From contig CAJXUL010000001.1 in assembly GCA_913060615.1 (NCBI GenBank), positions 6,391 through 70,390 of the forward strand: 64,000 nucleotides of DNA. Direction: 5' to 3'. Shown here one piece after another: positions 50,233 through 58,370 of the stretch. Each line of letters starts with the position of its first letter. The stretch's first letter is position 1. The DNA comes from an uncultured Gammaproteobacteria bacterium. Lineage in GTDB: Bacteria; Pseudomonadota; Gammaproteobacteria; Pseudomonadales; Azotimanducaceae. The notes beneath the pieces were generated by a model. The model was not told the origin of the DNA. It searched no databases and saw nothing but the letters and a program-made list of their open reading frames with translations. The position numbers and the translations under genes are program-made.

Positions 50233-50444
50233 TATCAATCGACACACGCTGAATGGGAGCAGACCATAAAAGCCTCACTGCATAAGTTCAATGCCTGCGC
50301 GGGAATTTTGCGCAAAATATGGCGAGAGGTTATGGCAAGACGCCCAGCCAAGTTGGAAAGCGAAATGCCGCATTGCTGATTTCCTGCACTTGGCGGGGCA
50401 GCGCTAAGTACACGCGCAGCATGTAAATGGACAGACGCTTCAAA

Positions 50445-51005
50445 TTATTGGGATTTATCGAATACGCGGCTAAACGTGCGTTTCTTTGAGCCAGGATTTT
50501 TAATGGTGACCACGGCCAATAGTCGTCCATCGCCTCGTATGGACCACGTCTTAGCGACTTTACGCTCGGTAGTTTTATACTTTTGCTCAATCTTTTTCTG
50601 CGACCATTTGCTGTCTCTGCCGCGATAGTGACCTTTGCGCAAAACCTCCTTAGCGTCCACACCCCCGACTTCCGGGTAGTCTATTTGTATCTTCGTAGGC
50701 ATCACGGTAATAAACATCGTCCGTGAGCGTAAGACCGCTGGGTCGGCAGCAGTTAAAGGAGACTGGGCTCCGACTTTTGAGCGCCCGGTGGGAATGGGTA
50801 GGCCCAAGACGGATACGCTGACCCTGCCTGGGCCCCCGAGAACCGTTGGCTTTTCATCCAGCTCTTCACGCAATAAATCTGTTTCTGCAACATTTATGAC
50901 CCATTCACCTGCATATTTTTCAGCAACAGCGTTCGTTGCAGCAATAATACTGTTGCTGCAAAAAGTCGCCAGGCAGGTGAGTAAGGCAAGATACCCTAGC
51001 TTCAT
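50445..51005 (-). CDS. Hypothetical secreted protein
   Basis: 186 aa with a signal-peptide-like N-terminus; no family recognised. Confidence 0.7.
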   Translation of the reverse strand: MKLGYLALLTCLATFCSNSIIAATNAVAEKYAGEWVINVAETDLLREELDEKPTVLGGPGRVSVSVLGLPIPTGRSKVGAQSPLTAADPAVLRSRTMFITVMPTKIQIDYPEVGGVDAKEVLRKGHYRGRDSKWSQKKIEQKYKTTERKVAKTWSIRGDGRLLAVVTIKNPGSKKRTFSRVFDKSQ

Positions 51006-51056
51006 TTGTATGTTCCGCTGCTGAGTAGTTGTTCCATTAGCGTTCAGTCTAATTCC

Positions 51057-53072
51057 CTAAGAGTCCGTTATAGCGTTTTTCAAAGCTTCAAGCTCTGTTG
51101 GCGCTGTGCCGGCTTTTTCCTGTGCCAACTTAATCTTTGCCGCCGTTAAGAAGGTGTTCAGATCTTGTTTGTAACTATCTGGGTTAACAAACGGGTTTGC
51201 GGCCCCAGTTGGCCGAGCGGCCGCTAAGTCCCGACGTGCAAACACTTTGCCCATCTCTTGGTGATTAGGCAGGCTCACGGAAGTGCCTTCTTGAATAGAT
51301 TGCAAGCGTTCGTAGCTGCTTATGTAGGTTTCAGTGCGCGCCACACCTGAGAAATTCAGACCGACACCGCCCAGTGTCATAGCGGTATATTCATTGTCGC
51401 CTTCGCGTACCTTATAACGAATAGATAACACGCCGGTGGTGTGGCCGGGGGTATTGAAAAGTTCGAAGGCATTGTCACCTAGAGCAATTATGTCACCATC
51501 TTTAGCGACAACATCGATGTTGGGTTTAGGCATATAAAACTGTGGTAGCTCCGGTTCTGCCCTGGCGATTGCCCAGTCGTCGGCGGTCATGACTATTTCT
51601 GCGCCATAGACTTTTTGCAAGTAGGCCGAGCCGCCAGCATGATCGAAGTGACCATGGGTGTTGATGACATATTTGATGTCACTTGGATTAAAGCCTATTG
51701 AGCGAATGTTGTTCACTAACATGGGCACCCACTTTCCGTACAGGCTATCAATGAGTACCAGGCCATCATCGGTATCTATTAGGTAGGCGGCAACCCAGTC
51801 GATGCCAACATAGTAAACGTTGTCGAAAATCTTGAAGGGCTTTACATATTGGGTCGCTGGATCTTCCCAGCTATCCCAAAGGGCTTGTAGTGCAGGATCA
51901 ATGGCTGCGCCAACATAGCTTTCACGGATGCAATCACCGCACAACACATCTTCTACATCCGTAAAGCTCTCAAGATTGGCCACCCAGTCCCTAATGCCTG
52001 TGCCATTTGCAGCCCAAGTATAGAATTCCGGTTTCTGCAATACGGTGTGGGAAGTGCCGCCGCCAATAAAGCTGCGAAAATTATCGGCCTCTGCGCGGAT
52101 GTCCTGATGATTTGCTTTCAGCGAGTCTAAAAGCTGAACATGCTTCTGTCCGCTTAGCGCAAGAAACCTTTTTTGTACCGCGTCTTCAGCGGCATCGTAC
52201 TCAGCGAAAAGAATTTCTGGGTGCTGTTGGGCCGCAGCGATATATAAGGACTCATAATTCATGTCATGTGAATTCAGATGTTCGAAGCCCTTTTCGTCTT
52301 TAATGAAATTAAACGTACCCCATTGTTCGTGGGGTCGAGTTGCCTGATTCATGCGCCGATAGCCACCTGCCGCATCGCCCAGTTGAGCAATCTGGGCATC
52401 TGGGTAGTGGTCGGCAATGATGGAGGCATATAAGGGTGAGGGGATGGCGCCCGCAGATGAGCCGGTGACAAATATGTTTTTGGGACTTTTAACATTGGCG
52501 TAAGTCCAATCTAACACCGCTTGCATATTGGCTCGGCCTTGATGGCGAATCACTAAATCTTTCTGTCCCTCTTCAATAGGCGGATATATTGTATCGCTGG
52601 CCCCGATATGCACATCGCCGGTGCAATAGGGCGCATAAACTACAGTGTGATCTTTGAACGGGTTACCCGCTTTTGCGAAATTGAAAATGCCGAAATGGGG
52701 GTAAGAGGTATTTGCCACATTGATGGTGTAACTGGGCTGCATTTGCGGATCGCAGGTCTGCCTAAACCAGCAGCCCCCGCCGCCTTGGAGATATACTAGA
52801 AGCTTGTCGGACGAACCTTGGCGAACGAAAAATTTGTATGGAGAACCATCGGAGCAGGTGGTTTCGCCCTCTGGAAATAAAGTTTGCCAGTCATCCACTG
52901 CTGTTACGTCGCCCTCAACGCCAACTTCGACCCCAACTTCAACTTCAACTATAGACCCTGGACTTGCCGGCTCATGTTTTTGGCAACCTGTGAAAGCCCA
53001 GAGTGACGCCAGAACAATTAGGCCTATCTGCACCTTTTGCAAAGACGCTCGAGTATTTATCAGTCTTTGCAT
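51057..53072 (-). CDS. Lipoprotein fusion: pectin-acetylesterase-family hydrolase plus subclass B3 metallo-beta-lactamase-fold domain
   Basis: Lipobox FTGC30. Esterase motifs TCSDGS, LQGGGGCW, GSSAGA. MBL motifs PFKIFDNVYYVG, HGHFDH, PGHT, PNH. Confidence 0.88.
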   Translation of the reverse strand: MQRLINTRASLQKVQIGLIVLASLWAFTGCQKHEPASPGSIVEVEVGVEVGVEGDVTAVDDWQTLFPEGETTCSDGSPYKFFVRQGSSDKLLVYLQGGGGCWFRQTCDPQMQPSYTINVANTSYPHFGIFNFAKAGNPFKDHTVVYAPYCTGDVHIGASDTIYPPIEEGQKDLVIRHQGRANMQAVLDWTYANVKSPKNIFVTGSSAGAIPSPLYASIIADHYPDAQIAQLGDAAGGYRRMNQATRPHEQWGTFNFIKDEKGFEHLNSHDMNYESLYIAAAQQHPEILFAEYDAAEDAVQKRFLALSGQKHVQLLDSLKANHQDIRAEADNFRSFIGGGTSHTVLQKPEFYTWAANGTGIRDWVANLESFTDVEDVLCGDCIRESYVGAAIDPALQALWDSWEDPATQYVKPFKIFDNVYYVGIDWVAAYLIDTDDGLVLIDSLYGKWVPMLVNNIRSIGFNPSDIKYVINTHGHFDHAGGSAYLQKVYGAEIVMTADDWAIARAEPELPQFYMPKPNIDVVAKDGDIIALGDNAFELFNTPGHTTGVLSIRYKVREGDNEYTAMTLGGVGLNFSGVARTETYISSYERLQSIQEGTSVSLPNHQEMGKVFARRDLAAARPTGAANPFVNPDSYKQDLNTFLTAAKIKLAQEKAGTAPTELEALKNAITDS

Positions 53073-53158
53073 AGGTTCCCCGCCAATATCGTTTTAGAAT
53101 AGCCTCTGATAGTAACGTCGCGGCATCCGCTGGGACAACAGTCTTGTGGAGACAAGTT

Positions 53159-53500
53159 ATGGAAGTGCTAGATCGAGTAAAATTGTTGCAGCAGGCGCAA
53201 TTGTGGAAACAGGGCAGTGTCGACAGTGAAGCAATGTGGCTTTGGTCTCTGCAAGCTAAAGCGGAAATGAAGGTCGTTGATGCGGCAGTGCGTGATGCCC
53301 TAGATATGTTGTGCTCTATTCCCGAAGACCTACTGATCAGTGAAGACACGGAGGTTATTTTTGACGCATTAGGTAATCCAGAAGATCAGACAGACTTGTC
53401 CTGTAATTTGCTTTGGAATTATCTCGACATGGTGGATACCAGAAGCCGTAGAGCAACGTTAGCCCAAGACCCATTTTATGGTCCTTATTGCCAAGACTAG
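53159..53500 (+). CDS. Hypothetical small acidic protein
   Basis: GGAGA Shine-Dalgarno 6 nt upstream of ATG 53159; 113 aa, helical-looking, no motif recognised. Confidence 0.7.
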   Translation: MEVLDRVKLLQQAQLWKQGSVDSEAMWLWSLQAKAEMKVVDAAVRDALDMLCSIPEDLLISEDTEVIFDALGNPEDQTDLSCNLLWNYLDMVDTRSRRATLAQDPFYGPYCQD

Positions 53501-54452: not shown

Positions 54453-55499
54453 CTACATAGAGTCAACGAGATTACGCAGCTTCTCACACTGAGCCACGCG
54501 CTCTTCAGCACTTTGACCTGCAAAGTTGACGTTCAGCGAAGTCACACCAGATTCTCTCAATGCATAAAGGCGTTCTTTAACAAAACTCTCGGGTCCAATC
54601 AGTGAACTCTTGGCAAGATAATCCGCTGGAATGGCTTCTTCAGCGGCTTTCTTATCACCTGCAAGGTAAAGGTCTTGAATGATTTTTGCTTCATCCACGT
54701 AACCACTCTTAGAAAAAATATCGTTATAAAAGTTTTTTGACCGAGCGCCCATGCCGCCGATATATAACGCCGCACCAGGACGAGCACGTTCTCTTAATTC
54801 TTCCATACCGTCGCCAATGGCAACGCTACCACCTGCAAAAATGTCCAATGGCGCTCTGCCACCGTCTCTTTTGGCATTACCCTGATCGAGTGACTCACCC
54901 CAAACGGCTCGGGCCGCTTCAGGTGTGTAGAAGGCCGGTAACCAAGCATCTGCTAGTTCAGCAGTTGCAGCCACACTGGTGGGTCCTAAGGAAGCAATGG
55001 CAATTGGAATGTCATCTTTCACTGGGTGGTTGATCAGCTTCAATGGCTTGCCCAAGCCAGTGCCTTCATTCTGAGGTAGCGGAATTTGGTAGTGCTTGCC
55101 AAGGTGTTGAACTTTTTCGCGCTTCCAAACTTTACGGCAAATCTCTATCACTTCACGAGTTCTGGCAACCGGTGCGTTGTAGGGTACGCCGTGAAAACCC
55201 TCAATTACTTGCGGGCCGGAAGCGCCTAGGCCAAGCATCGCGCGTCCGTCGGACAAATAGTCAAGGCCTGCCGCGGTCATCGCCAACAGACTCGGTGTGC
55301 GCGTATAAATTGGCAAAATGCCGGAGGCGATAATCACGCGCTCTGTTTCGGCGGCCAAGTAACCCATGGCTGTCGGCGCATCAAAGGAATAAGCCTCTGG
55401 TACCCATACAACATCTAGTCCTGCCTTTTCTAAGGCCTTTATTTCTGCAACAGCTTCTTTGAATCCGCCCGAATAACTCATCAATGTAGAGATTCGCAT
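54453..55499 (-). CDS. LLM-class oxidoreductase resembling F420-dependent Rv3520c-like enzymes
   Basis: WVPEAYSFDA, RTPSLLAMTAAGLD, LGLGASGPQVIEGFHG, GMGARSKNFY. ATG 55499 is preferred because the longer ORF overlaps the M20 gene. Confidence 0.88.
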   Translation of the reverse strand: MRISTLMSYSGGFKEAVAEIKALEKAGLDVVWVPEAYSFDAPTAMGYLAAETERVIIASGILPIYTRTPSLLAMTAAGLDYLSDGRAMLGLGASGPQVIEGFHGVPYNAPVARTREVIEICRKVWKREKVQHLGKHYQIPLPQNEGTGLGKPLKLINHPVKDDIPIAIASLGPTSVAATAELADAWLPAFYTPEAARAVWGESLDQGNAKRDGGRAPLDIFAGGSVAIGDGMEELRERARPGAALYIGGMGARSKNFYNDIFSKSGYVDEAKIIQDLYLAGDKKAAEEAIPADYLAKSSLIGPESFVKERLYALRESGVTSLNVNFAGQSAEERVAQCEKLRNLVDSM

Positions 55500-55581
55500 T
55501 TTTCTCCCCGGTAATTTTTGTTGCCAGATTATGGAGACTTGTGCATCTTCGTTGCTAGTGATTTTTTTAATAGGAATAGAT

Positions 55582-56988
55582 ATGAAGCGCAAAAATAGCG
55601 TTATGTTCAGGAGTTTGATGGTTTTAGCGGTGTCATTAGGTGTGATGCAGGGTGCTAAAGCGGACGTCACAACTTTTGCCGAAGCAGCTGTGCCTAGACT
55701 TTCGCAGTACCTGAAAATTGATACGGTTAATCCGCCGGGCAATGAGTATCGCGGTGTGGCGTATTTATCCAAGTTACTTGATGACGCTGGAGTCGTATAT
55801 GAATCGGCTGAATCAGCGAAAGGGCGAGGTAATCTCTGGGCCAGACTTGAGGGTGCACCAGGCCCGGATGGCAAAAAGAAGCCCGCATTGGTGTTGCTTC
55901 ACCATATTGACGTGGTGCCAGCGAACTTAAAGTTTTGGACAGTAGACCCCCTATCTGGCGACATTGCAGATGGTTATATATATGGCCGTGGGGCAATCGA
56001 TACCAAGGGTTTAGGTATTGCGCACCTGCAGGCTTTTTTGGCCCTTGCTGATAGCGGTATAACACTCAACAGAGATGTGCTTTTTGTCGCCACAGCAGAT
56101 GAAGAAGCGGGTGGGTTTTTTGGCGCAGGATGGCTTATTGAAAACCGCCCTGAGATTTTTGCTGATGTAGGTTATGTGCTCAATGAAGGTGGTTCAGGGC
56201 GCAGCTTTGGCAGCGATATTGCGGTTATGGTAGAGGTCACGCAAAAAGTCCCCCTTTGGTTGCGGTTAACCGCGCTGGGTAAACCTGGTCACGGCTCTGC
56301 GCCGCAAATGCAAACGTCCGTTACTCGGCTTATCCGTGGCTTGAAGCGCGTCAGTGAAACCGAGTTTCCAGTCAACGTAATAGCCCCTGTTGCACAAATG
56401 TTTGAAGGCATGGCGCCTTATCAAACTGGCGCCGATCGCTCGAACTTTGCCGACATAGCCAAGGCCGTAGAAAATCCCGACTACCTACTGGGTCTAAAAT
56501 TGAATAATCCAGGCGGCCACGCGCTACTGCGTAACACCTGTTCAATCACTACCTTGGAGGGCAGCAGCAAGATCAATGTTGTGCCAGCGCAGGTTCATGC
56601 AGAGTTAGATTGCAGACTGCTACCCGACCAAGATCCCGAGGCGTTTCTTGTTGATTTGAACAATATTATTAATGATAAACATATAACTATTGAGCGCATT
56701 ATGGGCTTCACGCCGGCTATCAGCCGTACTGATACGCCGCTGTATAAGTCAATCGCCAAGGTATCCGAACAAGCTTTTGGCGCGCCAGTTATTCCAACAG
56801 TAGCCGGCGGTTTCACCGACTCGCATTTTTTTCGTGATTTGGGTATTACCAGTTATGGTTACTCGCCGTTTGTCTTTGCGCCGGGAGAATTTTCAGGTGT
56901 GCACGGCAATGATGAGCGTCTAGGTGAGGAAAATCTCAAGCGAGGCGTGCGTACGCTTTACCAGCTGTTGGTAGATTTTGCCGGCTAG
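55582..56988 (+). CDS. Exported M20/M25/M40 (ArgE/DapE-like) metallopeptidase
   Basis: Signal peptide, HHIDVVP, GRGAIDTK, DEEAGG, NEGG, GHGS, TDSH, HGNDE. Confidence 0.92.
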   Translation: MKRKNSVMFRSLMVLAVSLGVMQGAKADVTTFAEAAVPRLSQYLKIDTVNPPGNEYRGVAYLSKLLDDAGVVYESAESAKGRGNLWARLEGAPGPDGKKKPALVLLHHIDVVPANLKFWTVDPLSGDIADGYIYGRGAIDTKGLGIAHLQAFLALADSGITLNRDVLFVATADEEAGGFFGAGWLIENRPEIFADVGYVLNEGGSGRSFGSDIAVMVEVTQKVPLWLRLTALGKPGHGSAPQMQTSVTRLIRGLKRVSETEFPVNVIAPVAQMFEGMAPYQTGADRSNFADIAKAVENPDYLLGLKLNNPGGHALLRNTCSITTLEGSSKINVVPAQVHAELDCRLLPDQDPEAFLVDLNNIINDKHITIERIMGFTPAISRTDTPLYKSIAKVSEQAFGAPVIPTVAGGFTDSHFFRDLGITSYGYSPFVFAPGEFSGVHGNDERLGEENLKRGVRTLYQLLVDFAG

Positions 56989-57092: not shown

Positions 57093-57158
57093 AGGCGAAT
57101 AGACGGCTAGCCGTGTTAAGCTTCGACCACTGAAAAGTTATAAACATAGGGCTTGTTA

Positions 57159-58370
57159 ATGGCGTTAACGATAGAAGATAGCGGATTAGATTTTACTCCA
57201 ATGCATGAACGCATGGATTTTTATGTAAAAGAAAATATTTTGTCATGTTGCGCCACGGTGGTAATGCAAGGCACCAAGGTCGTGGATTATAAAACCTTTG
57301 GATATATGAACGTTGAGGACAAATCGCCGCTGCGCGAAGACGCTATTTATCGCATGTATTCCAGCACCAAGTTGGTTACTTCAGTGGCGCTGATGATGCT
57401 TTATGAGCAAGGCCTATTTAAGCTGGATGATCCGTTAGCTAAATTCATGCCAGATTTTGCCGACATGCAAGTACTCAAAGCTGCCGCGAGTTCACCAGAC
57501 GATGTCGCCCCAGCGAAAAACCCTATCCTGATAAAGCATATCCTAAGTCATAGTGCGGGCCTGAGTTATGGCTTTATTGAGCCGGACTCGGTCATTGATC
57601 AGGCCTACAACAAGGCGGTTAACGTCCTGAGTGATTTCAGTCCGGACCTAGAAGAATTTTGCGCAGACATTGCAAAACTGCCACTGGCTTATGAGCCTGG
57701 CACCAGCTGGCGTTATTCTGTGGCGACCGATGTTTGTGCCCGTTTGGTAGAAGTTTTATCCGGACAGAAGTTTGATGAGTTTTTGCGCGACAAAATATTT
57801 ACGCCGTTAGCAATGGTAGATACCGATTTTTGGGTGCCGCCCGAAAAAGCTGCTCGGTTCACTACCATGTATTCACCAACAGATATATTTAAGCCCATGG
57901 CGTCTGGGTTGGTTAAAGCCGACGATCCTATTGCGGGCCAGTACAACCAGCCACGTAATTGGTTAAGTGGCGGTGGCGGCCTCGTTTCTACGGTCTCCGA
58001 CTATGTTGCGTTTTTGCAGATGATCATTAGCGGCGGTGAATGGAACGGACAGCGAATTCTAAAAGCAGAAACGCTAAGTCTGATGAGGACCAATCAATTA
58101 GCTGAAGGGGTCAGTGTTGCATTCCCGATGTGGGCTATGCCGGGCACTGTTTTTGGTCTTGGCTTTGCCCTCAAAGAAAATTTGCAAGAAGGCGACCCGA
58201 TTGGTGCGCAAGGTGAGTATCACTGGGGCGGCATGGCCGGCACGCATAGCTGGATGGCGCCTGAAGCAGACCTTACTGGCTTTTGCTTGACCCAGCGCAT
58301 GCCAGGGTTTTGGCACCCATTCAGTCACGAGTTTAAAGCTCACGCCTATGCTATAGCTGGCACAAAATAG
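57159..58370 (+). CDS. Serine hydrolase, beta-lactamase/EstB (class C-like) family
   Basis: RMYSSTK (SxxK), LSHSAGL, WRYS, HWGG; no signal peptide. Confidence 0.92.
   Translation: MALTIEDSGLDFTPMHERMDFYVKENILSCCATVVMQGTKVVDYKTFGYMNVEDKSPLREDAIYRMYSSTKLVTSVALMMLYEQGLFKLDDPLAKFMPDFADMQVLKAAASSPDDVAPAKNPILIKHILSHSAGLSYGFIEPDSVIDQAYNKAVNVLSDFSPDLEEFCADIAKLPLAYEPGTSWRYSVATDVCARLVEVLSGQKFDEFLRDKIFTPLAMVDTDFWVPPEKAARFTTMYSPTDIFKPMASGLVKADDPIAGQYNQPRNWLSGGGGLVSTVSDYVAFLQMIISGGEWNGQRILKAETLSLMRTNQLAEGVSVAFPMWAMPGTVFGLGFALKENLQEGDPIGAQGEYHWGGMAGTHSWMAPEADLTGFCLTQRMPGFWHPFSHEFKAHAYAIAGTK

Follow-up and report, generated by a model that had tools for sequence, protein, structure and literature searches.

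Can a single protein held at a bacterial membrane carry two unlike hydrolytic sites that act on the same kind of molecule? The question is raised by a gene in a stretch of 64,000 nucleotides (hereafter the window) of contig CAJXUL010000001.1, assembly GCA_913060615.1, from an uncultured gammaproteobacterium of the Azotimanducaceae. The gene is one uninterrupted open reading frame (ORF) of 671 residues with an ATG start and no internal stops. It has a GC content of 0.48-0.50 and the same base composition as its flanks. A signal peptide with a lipobox cysteine (Cys30) and a variable linker are followed by a pectin acetylesterase (PAE)/Notum-like α/β-hydrolase module (residues ~60-385) and a B3-type metallo-β-lactamase (MBL) module (residues ~386-655). 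The boundary between the modules lies near nt 51900. Both domains score above their Pfam cut-offs: PAE (PF03283) with 58.3 bits against 26.6 over residues 71-255, and Lactamase_B (PF00753) with 83.7 bits against 22.7 over residues 428-554.

This layout was first described in an original prediction made from the DNA letters without database searches. We agree with it on the single ORF, on the lipoprotein, on the two folds in one protein and on the position of the junction. The codon coordinates were checked, and every motif it listed is present where it was placed (Table 1). Judging by its sequence, the gene is a real and vertically conserved one that encodes an exported-type lipoprotein of uncultured marine Gammaproteobacteria. 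We further argue, with moderate confidence, that the product is an exported and membrane-tethered enzyme with one site for O-acyl esters and another for cyclic amides or esters, which would act on the same or related substrates.

The fusion is real and widespread

The simplest objection is that a misassembly, a chimera or the loss of a stop codon merged two adjoining genes. A collection of 5.8 billion proteins contains at least 583 homologues, of which the best 120 all combine PF03283 with PF00753 in 640-672 residues at 58-88% identity. When GTDB was scanned with one genome for each species, 14 full-length loci were found, including those on the complete chromosomes OZ244143 and OZ245781. Hundreds of independent assemblies, closed chromosomes among them, carry the same architecture. 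Contigs from four independent metagenome DNA runs (three studies) cross the junction near 51900 without indels or joints, and the unitigs from these runs read identically through the junction. One unitig of 2362 nt is identical to the window over 50400-52534, the junction included. Contigs from metatranscriptomes are sparse. One fragment covers the junction (51811-52005) and a second (50959-51122) bridges the gap to the downstream gene; DNA carry-over is a possible source of both. Misassembly and stop-loss, which had been named among the findings that would refute the original prediction, are ruled out as the origin of the ORF by the homologues, the closed chromosomes and the junction-crossing contigs. 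We regard the chance of an artefact of any kind as negligible.

The nearest genome matches are a metagenome-assembled genome (MAG) of the K189A clade at 89% identity and an unclassified gammaproteobacterial MAG at 88%, so a member of the K189A clade or a close marine gammaproteobacterial relative is the probable source of the window. The family is also found in OM182, in Candidatus Azotimanducaceae (two closed chromosomes) and in other Pseudomonadales and marine Gammaproteobacteria. It must be noted that two loci carry discordant labels, 'Limisphaerales' for L005 (JBNMMV010000018.1) and a 'Paraglaciecola psychrophila' MAG for L012 (JBLHLU010000328.1). The gene order of L005 is that of the Azotimanducaceae-type loci. 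These labels probably reflect contamination during binning rather than a wider taxonomic spread.

The original prediction had also put the architecture forward as a novelty. In the sense of a rare or unrecorded protein this does not hold, as hundreds of homologues are already in public databases under automatic names. Those names come purely from homology ('pectin acetylesterase-family hydrolase', 'MBL fold metallo-hydrolase', 'glyoxylase-like metal-dependent hydrolase'). In the sense of an uncharacterised protein it does hold. We found no publication on a PAE-MBL fusion, on an esterase-fused lipoprotein of the B3 type or on a characterised bacterial PF03283 protein, in a literature search that left most subscription-journal papers outside. 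A review of the B3 enzymes does not mention fusions or lipoproteins (PMC10318434).

A lipoprotein with a variable tether

The N-terminus MQRLINTRASLQKVQIGLIVLASLWAFTGC sets the Cys30 codon at nt 52983-52985, in the context ...LASLWAFTG-C30. We aligned 35 non-redundant fusion homologues, and counts out of 35 refer to this alignment. Cys30 is invariant (35/35), and all the homologues show L/x-x-[AG]-C behind a hydrophobic stretch. Phe at lipobox position -3 is an uncommon yet tolerated variant. A signal peptide followed by a lipobox with an invariant cysteine makes the protein a predicted lipoprotein. The outer membrane is its most likely location, because residue +2 after Cys30 is Gln and not Asp.

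The linker was mentioned in the original prediction. It is present as VEVEVGVEVGVEG at residues 42-54, and we read it as an ordinary variable lipoprotein tether with no functional element in itself. The DNA that encodes it is a 6/12-nt tandem repeat at 52915-52950. Its length and sequence vary even between homologues that are 88-90% identical, and identity between orthologues is 10-59% in this region. In an AlphaFold (AF2) model of the full-length protein the predicted local distance difference test score (pLDDT) is below 50 for residues 28-59, so the tether is predicted to be disordered.

The esterase module is related to Notum

The fusion protein is a remote yet valid member of PF03283. Its match spans profile positions 22-205 of 355, so it reaches only the first half of the Pfam profile. 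NCBIfam has no model for this half of the protein. When the full-length AF2 model was searched against the PDB with Foldseek, the best 50 matches listed were solely MBL proteins, with none for the esterase half. A family profile gives a clearer answer. It was built from 34 diverse relatives, mostly stand-alone proteins of ~360 residues, and it matches the structures of human and fly Notum at E 1.5e-19 (4uza/4uyu). Among solved structures, Notum chains are the only strong sequence matches of the esterase module (E 1e-11 to 1e-19).

The profile alignment puts GsSAGa on Notum GSSAGG and GGG-C-W on the GGW-C-F oxyanion region of Notum. The second Ser of Notum GSSAGG is the nucleophile of that enzyme, Ser232. 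The GSSAG of the fusion protein is at residues 204-208, and its predicted nucleophile is the second Ser, Ser206, not Ser205. The fusion clade (35/35) and the 34 diverse stand-alone and fused relatives all keep Ser206, Asp297 and His342 without exception. Beyond the nucleophile, Asp297 and His342 are the sole invariant Asp and His in this wide family. In plant PAEs the catalytic Asp lies in the motif NxayDxxQ and the catalytic His in 'HCQ' (PMC5465549). The family consensus around Asp297, NxAxDxVQ, reproduces the first of these motifs, and His342 is equivalent to the His of the second. We therefore predict a Ser206-Asp297-His342 triad, in which Ser is placed by alignment and Asp and His by motif equivalence without structural superposition. 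The original prediction had pointed to the GSSAGA motif and to candidate Asp and His residues. All are present, and the predicted nucleophile is Ser206.

Six cysteines (73, 101, 107, 150, 378 and 381) are also invariant in this module, which fits an oxidising compartment. The likeness to Notum (PDB 4uyu/4uza) and to the plant PAEs (CAZy family CE13) thus covers the Pfam family, the G-x-S-x-G motif, the oxyanion region and several conserved disulfide cysteines, and it extends to the Asp motif and downstream His of the plant enzymes. The fusion differs from both in being a bacterial lipoprotein of which only the first ~55-60% of the esterase module aligns (residues 71-255). Wnt is not known to be available as a substrate to free-living marine bacteria. 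Pectin is also unlikely as the substrate of this module.

The MBL module has a B3-type fold

The second module opens with the helix PALQALWDSWEDP, followed by the B3-typical start PFKIFDNVYYVG at residues 412-423. Two zinc sites are predicted: Zn1 at H473/H475/H544 and Zn2 at D477/H478/H604. The six ligands align to those of BJP-1 and of the Caulobacter protein 8u00, and all are invariant (35/35). The original prediction of a complete B3 zinc set is borne out in this respect.

Sequence comparison puts the module nearest, among solved structures, to BJP-1 (E 1e-31), a B3-like protein of Caulobacter, MEM-A1 and FEZ-1. By structure the AF2 model matches BJP-1, FEZ-1 and Rm3 with TM scores of 0.74-0.85 normalised to the target. 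The best 50 PDB matches listed by Foldseek are all B3-type MBL-fold proteins, including HARLDQ-motif and unassigned MBL-fold proteins, and MIM-1 and MIM-2 are among the fold matches. The B3 enzymes nearest to the module are the CAR family (CAR-1 of Pectobacterium and CAR-2 of Phytobacter) and, by structure, BJP-1 (PDB 2gmn/3lvz). They share with it the αβ/βα fold (TM 0.82 for BJP-1, 0.84-0.85 for FEZ-1), the six ligands, the B3-type N-terminal helix, the FxIFDNxYYVG start and export. The identity to BJP-1 in the Foldseek alignment is only 28-29%. Unlike these enzymes, the module is the C-terminal half of an esterase-fused lipoprotein, and it is known from sequence and model.

Both modules are under selection

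It could be argued that one domain has no catalytic activity and is kept for binding or as a scaffold. The evidence for this is limited to the sub-threshold NCBIfam scores of the MBL module, given below, and the half-profile PAE match. Against it, the triad and the six metal ligands are invariant in all 35 homologues, and the triad is kept in distant stand-alone relatives too. Against the orthologues L001-L003, the esterase module has a ratio of nonsynonymous to synonymous substitution rates (dN/dS) of 0.08-0.13, and the MBL module one of 0.11-0.15. Esterase and MBL modules show equal amino-acid identity at each evolutionary distance (92/91, 85/87, 65/66 and 63/60%). Both modules are under equal purifying selection, with dN/dS ~0.1. 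An inactive domain would have refuted the original prediction. Neither domain looks degenerate, and we consider a dead domain very unlikely.

A single fusion event is the simplest origin

In a set of 50%-identity clusters (1.84 billion representatives) the fused clade is represented by P0121, which is full-length, and by P0122, which is truncated. The remaining rows among the 150 matches listed are mostly single-domain proteins or other architectures. P0124 is a stand-alone lipoprotein MBL of 343 residues that is 56% identical to the module and opens with the same N-terminal helix, which is also seen in other stand-alone relatives; these are 50-56% identical to the module. P0125/L015 are stand-alone lipoprotein PAE-like proteins of 364-392 residues, 50-52% identical, that end right after the CxxC pair. 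Since the stand-alone esterases end after CxxC and the stand-alone MBLs start at the same helix, the junction between the modules amounts to only ~5-10 residues. The stand-alone relatives share the motifs of the fusion (HGHFDH, PGHT, TLGGVGLNF and LPNH in one module; GxSAG, NxAxDxVQ and SHT in the other), its export signals and its marine gammaproteobacterial hosts. They differ from it in being single-domain proteins in variable contexts. The fused clade is about one 50% cluster and there are many stand-alone relatives of both modules, so the modules were probably joined only once, in marine Gammaproteobacteria, which is the simplest reading of these sequences.

Other unusual combinations were seen among the relatives. 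P0157 (833 residues) combines a B3-like MBL with DUF3471 and a class-C-like serine hydrolase (PF00144), and P0135 (1208 residues) has four tandem MBL domains. The examples P0176, P0217 and P0210 have a PAE-like module together with a TAP-like hydrolase plus a multicopper oxidase (1672 residues), with an FGE-sulfatase domain, or with a PF00756 esterase and TPR. DUF6197 is often found C-terminal to the PAE-like module.

Do the two sites cooperate?

We infer the following scheme, from the metal content and the membrane localisation to the coupling of the sites and the class of substrate. Signal peptidase II would cleave the precursor, and Cys30 would be lipidated. The flexible tether of ~30 residues would then hold a compact two-module enzyme at the membrane, facing the periplasm. 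The disulfide-rich PAE/Notum-type module would cleave an O-acyl (carboxyl-ester) bond with Ser206-Asp297-His342. The di-zinc B3-type module would open a cyclic amide or ester of the β-lactam or lactone type by means of a metal-bound hydroxide. Together they may carry out deacylation plus ring or ester hydrolysis of the same or closely related small molecules, in periplasmic scavenging or detoxification. We place the two activities on the same or related substrates because there is almost no linker between the modules and because the modules evolve at an equal rate. The original prediction of a tethered hydrolase with two active sites agrees with the sequence. Its sequential deacylation and ring opening of one substrate was an inference only, and it was overstated.

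Several results weigh against our scheme. The first concerns the class of the MBL module. Its best NCBIfam match is the CAR family (NF000469), with 208.5 bits against a cut-off of 500, and the model for subclass B3 (bla_subclass_B3, NF033105) gives 155.6 bits against 240. The only NCBIfam model passed is the generic class-B core domain model (104 against 100). Stand-alone MBL relatives, 40-56% identical to the module, score 194-228 bits with the CAR model and 141-162 bits with the general B3 model. Since the module and these relatives all fall below threshold, they seem to form a distinct clade nearest to, yet outside, the CAR cephalosporinases. For the same reason we call the module B3-like and do not file it as a B3 β-lactamase. 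The original assignment to B3 stands for the fold and the ligands, but every curated NCBIfam B3-family cut-off is missed.

The second is a loop. In B3 enzymes of the L1 type, Ser221 and Ser/Thr223 bind the substrate carboxylate (PMC10740994). This Ser221-x-Ser/Thr223 pair is not evident in the fusion, which has an invariant T566-LGGVGLNF loop at that place, where the alignment is unstable. The BJP-1 alignment puts Leu567 and Gly569 at positions 221 and 223; in the 8u00 alignment, which is offset from it by three residues, Thr566 possibly falls there. The same loop is kept in the stand-alone MBL relatives.

The third is the company that the modules keep. The PAE-like module is elsewhere fused to TAP-like α/β-hydrolases, to a PF00756 esterase with TPR, to an FGE-sulfatase domain, to a multicopper oxidase, to Kelch and to an Ig-like domain. 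With so many unrelated partners, the fusion could merely co-localise independent activities. If the two activities were coupled, stand-alone genes for them might be expected side by side. In the small sample L015, L016 and L018-L022 no stand-alone PAE-like gene lies next to a stand-alone MBL-like gene, and coupling thus gains no support of the Rosetta-stone kind. The number of loci is low because a metagenome scan with P0124 found two only. The stand-alone genes of both kinds have variable, unrelated neighbours.

These points lead to the main rival, in which the two halves are independent enzymes. The MBL would be an intrinsic periplasmic β-lactamase that protects the cell against environmental β-lactams. 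The PAE-like part would act separately, and could deacetylate acetylated polysaccharide or other esters of dissolved organic matter. The fusion would do no more than place them together. The complete zinc set, the B3 fold and the CAR cephalosporinases as best curated match all fit an intrinsic β-lactamase. The many partners of the PAE-like module, the MBL fused to a PF00144 domain in P0157 and the common occurrence of stand-alone versions that are not adjacent to each other fit two separate activities. However, the linker-free junction is tight and the modules diverge equally. The AF2 model has a pLDDT of 81 and a predicted TM score (pTM) of 0.81, and the pLDDT stays above 80 through the junction, all of which suggests an integrated unit. 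The sub-threshold B3 scores and the apparently altered 221/223 loop also argue against a plain β-lactamase. We consider independent enzymes to be an unlikely account, albeit one that has to be taken seriously.

A two-site enzyme acting on related substrates may also be read in two narrower ways, neither of them strongly supported. One is a dedicated two-step enzyme for natural O-acylated β-lactams or lactones in seawater, such as 3'-acetoxymethyl cephems. The PAE-like site would deacylate them, with ring opening left to the di-zinc site beside it. The products might pass to catabolism through the LLM (luciferase-like) oxidoreductases encoded nearby. These cephems are candidates because the nearest characterised enzymes, CAR-1 and CAR-2, hydrolyse cephalothin and cefotaxime best; these enzymes favour cephalothin, cefuroxime and cefotaxime (PMC12434095). 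We think this specific role improbable.

The other narrower reading is a signal-quenching or lipid-ester hydrolase, in which lipophilic lactone or ester signals would be destroyed at the cell envelope. The MBL would be a lactonase, for example of N-acyl-homoserine lactones (AHLs), and the Notum-like module would attack a long acyl chain. The only strong structure matches of the esterase are Notum, deposited as a palmitoleoyl-protein carboxylesterase, which is a long-chain deacylase. The carboxylate-binding Ser pair of β-lactam recognition is not evident, as noted. For MIM-1 and MIM-2, two B3 enzymes from marine bacteria, promiscuity towards quorum-sensing lactones is cited in the reference list of one paper (PMC10740994). 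The neighbours of the gene include a weakly FABP-like secreted barrel and acyl-CoA thioesterase II, and in other loci an acyl-CoA dehydrogenase and a MAPEG protein. However, the barrel and thioesterase genes belong to a syntenic backbone that is present without the fusion too, and the barrel resembles FABP folds only weakly (E no better than 3e-3). The MBL-fold AHL lactonases of the AiiA type are also far more distant from the module than the B3 β-lactamases are. This role is doubtful, and we rate it slightly below the O-acylated cephems.

We return to the two-site enzyme with related substrates as the preferred reading. At the very least, and as far as sequence and curated thresholds go, the fusion is real and widespread, is built from two well-understood catalytic folds and belongs to no named B3 family.

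Why the architecture matters

Work on B3 MBLs has dealt almost solely with resistance enzymes of a single domain, and what they do natively in environmental bacteria is still a question. Here a B3-type module is stably fused to a Notum/PAE-type esterase in a protein that is predicted to be lipid-anchored, is under selection and is common in abundant marine Gammaproteobacteria. If the sites cooperate, the fusion would hint at the natural substrate type of such MBLs, an acylated lactam or lactone. It would then make the pre-clinical function of the B3 class open to testing and offer a first functional entry into the large bacterial PAE/Notum branch. If the two-step reading on O-acylated compounds were true, a natural 'deacylase plus ring-opener' would be new to every β-lactamase class. 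Without cooperation between the sites, the protein is just another multi-domain periplasmic hydrolase.

Genomic neighbourhood

Table 1. Coordinates of the fusion gene, its predicted functional elements and its neighbours (window positions unless a locus is named)
Feature	Position	Strand	Basis
Complete coding sequence, PAE-like/B3-MBL-like fusion lipoprotein, 671 residues, stop codon included	51057..53072	-	ORF list, homologues
Signal peptide ending in lipobox F-T-G-C (Cys30)	52983..53072	-	Translation, homologue alignment
Low-complexity tether, residues 31-59, containing VEVEVGVEVGVEG	52896..52982	-	Tandem repeat, low pLDDT, low identity
PAE/Notum-like α/β-hydrolase module, residues 60-385, six invariant Cys	51918..52895	-	PF03283, Notum profile match, dN/dS
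Ser206 codon, predicted nucleophile in G204-S-S206-A-G208	52455..52457	-	Aligned with second Ser of Notum GSSAGG
Asp297 codon, predicted triad acid, motif D293-A-A-E-D297-A-V-Q300	52182..52184	-	Invariant; plant PAE motif
His342 codon, predicted triad base (S-H-T)	52047..52049	-	Invariant; plant PAE 'HCQ' position
B3-type MBL-fold module, residues 386-655, including N-terminal helix PALQALWDSWEDP	51108..51917	-	PF00753, BJP-1 match, Foldseek, dN/dS
H473-G-H475-F-D477-H478 (B3 H116, H118, D120, H121)	51639..51656	-	Aligned to BJP-1 HAHLDH; His/Asp invariant
His544 codon, PGHT (B3 H196, third predicted Zn1 ligand)	51441..51443	-	Aligned to BJP-1 TPGHS; invariant
His604 codon, LPNH (B3 H263, third predicted Zn2 ligand)	51261..51263	-	Aligned to BJP-1 and Caulobacter 8u00 'PxH' His; invariant
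186-residue secreted protein gene	50445-51005	-	51 nt downstream of fusion gene
Conserved 118-residue acidic ORF	53144-53500	+	Divergent from fusion gene, 71 nt upstream
LLM-class oxidoreductase genes	Window 54453-55496; L005 9973-11121; L006 9873-10799; L014 9879-10805	- (window)	Near fusion gene

In the clade of the window the fusion gene lies in a block with the order PF00144 serine hydrolase, M20 peptidase, LLM oxidoreductase, acyl-CoA thioesterase II, 118-residue ORF and fusion. The block continues with the gene for a secreted protein of 186 residues, ArfB, DsbA, cytochrome c4, EngB and PolA. A scan with Rfam and a scan for promoters and terminators gave nothing useful in the fusion region.

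The gene for the 186-residue protein follows the fusion in 11 of the 15 full-length loci, and the gap between them in the window has no terminator-like site. The protein has no match in Pfam or NCBIfam. Only 32 homologue clusters were found for it, and they are from marine Gammaproteobacteria throughout. In its AF2 model the C-terminal ~90 residues have pLDDT above 90, and the model weakly resembles calycin barrels of the FABP/CRABP/NanoLuc type (E 3e-3 to 3e-2). We considered this gene as a functional partner and have downgraded it. Homologues at 47-53% identity occur in the same syntenic block without a fusion gene there (L023-L026), while L027 has both. Since the gene is kept where the fusion is absent, its adjacency is poor evidence of shared function and is probably backbone synteny. 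The fusion gene itself behaves, as far as these loci can be compared, as a presence/absence insertion into a conserved backbone.

The 118-residue ORF on the other side is found in 9 related loci. It has 113 residues in L023-L027 and so is present in the fusion-less backbone too. It has no match in Pfam or NCBIfam. In X1, X2 and X6, three of the four DNA runs, contig depth at 53126-53200 is 2-4 times that of the fusion gene, and the same bin is the deepest in two of three RNA runs (X24 and X25). This suggests a highly conserved and expressed gene.

Three genomic contexts have a gene for an LLM-class oxidoreductase, predicted to be cytoplasmic, no more than two genes away from the fusion. We note this recurrence as an oddity. 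We asked if they are one orthologue that has shifted within the locus, and this was rejected, as they are three unrelated paralogues and not orthologous to each other. Two of these contexts have the LLM gene directly downstream of the fusion on the same strand. In L006 and L014 it is followed by an AhpD/CMD-like 'peroxidase-related enzyme'. The window has a single LLM gene. Its ORF as listed, 54453-55874 (-) (473 residues, TTG start), is over-extended. The conserved TIGR03559-type protein of 347 residues starts ~126 codons later, near 55496. With this start the apparent overlap with the M20 peptidase gene at 55531-56988 (+) is gone.

The PF00144 serine hydrolase of the same conserved block (57153-58370, +) has 405 residues. 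In NCBIfam it scores best with methyl acetate hydrolase AcmB, at 149 bits against a cut-off of 550, and it may be an esterase or β-lactamase-like.

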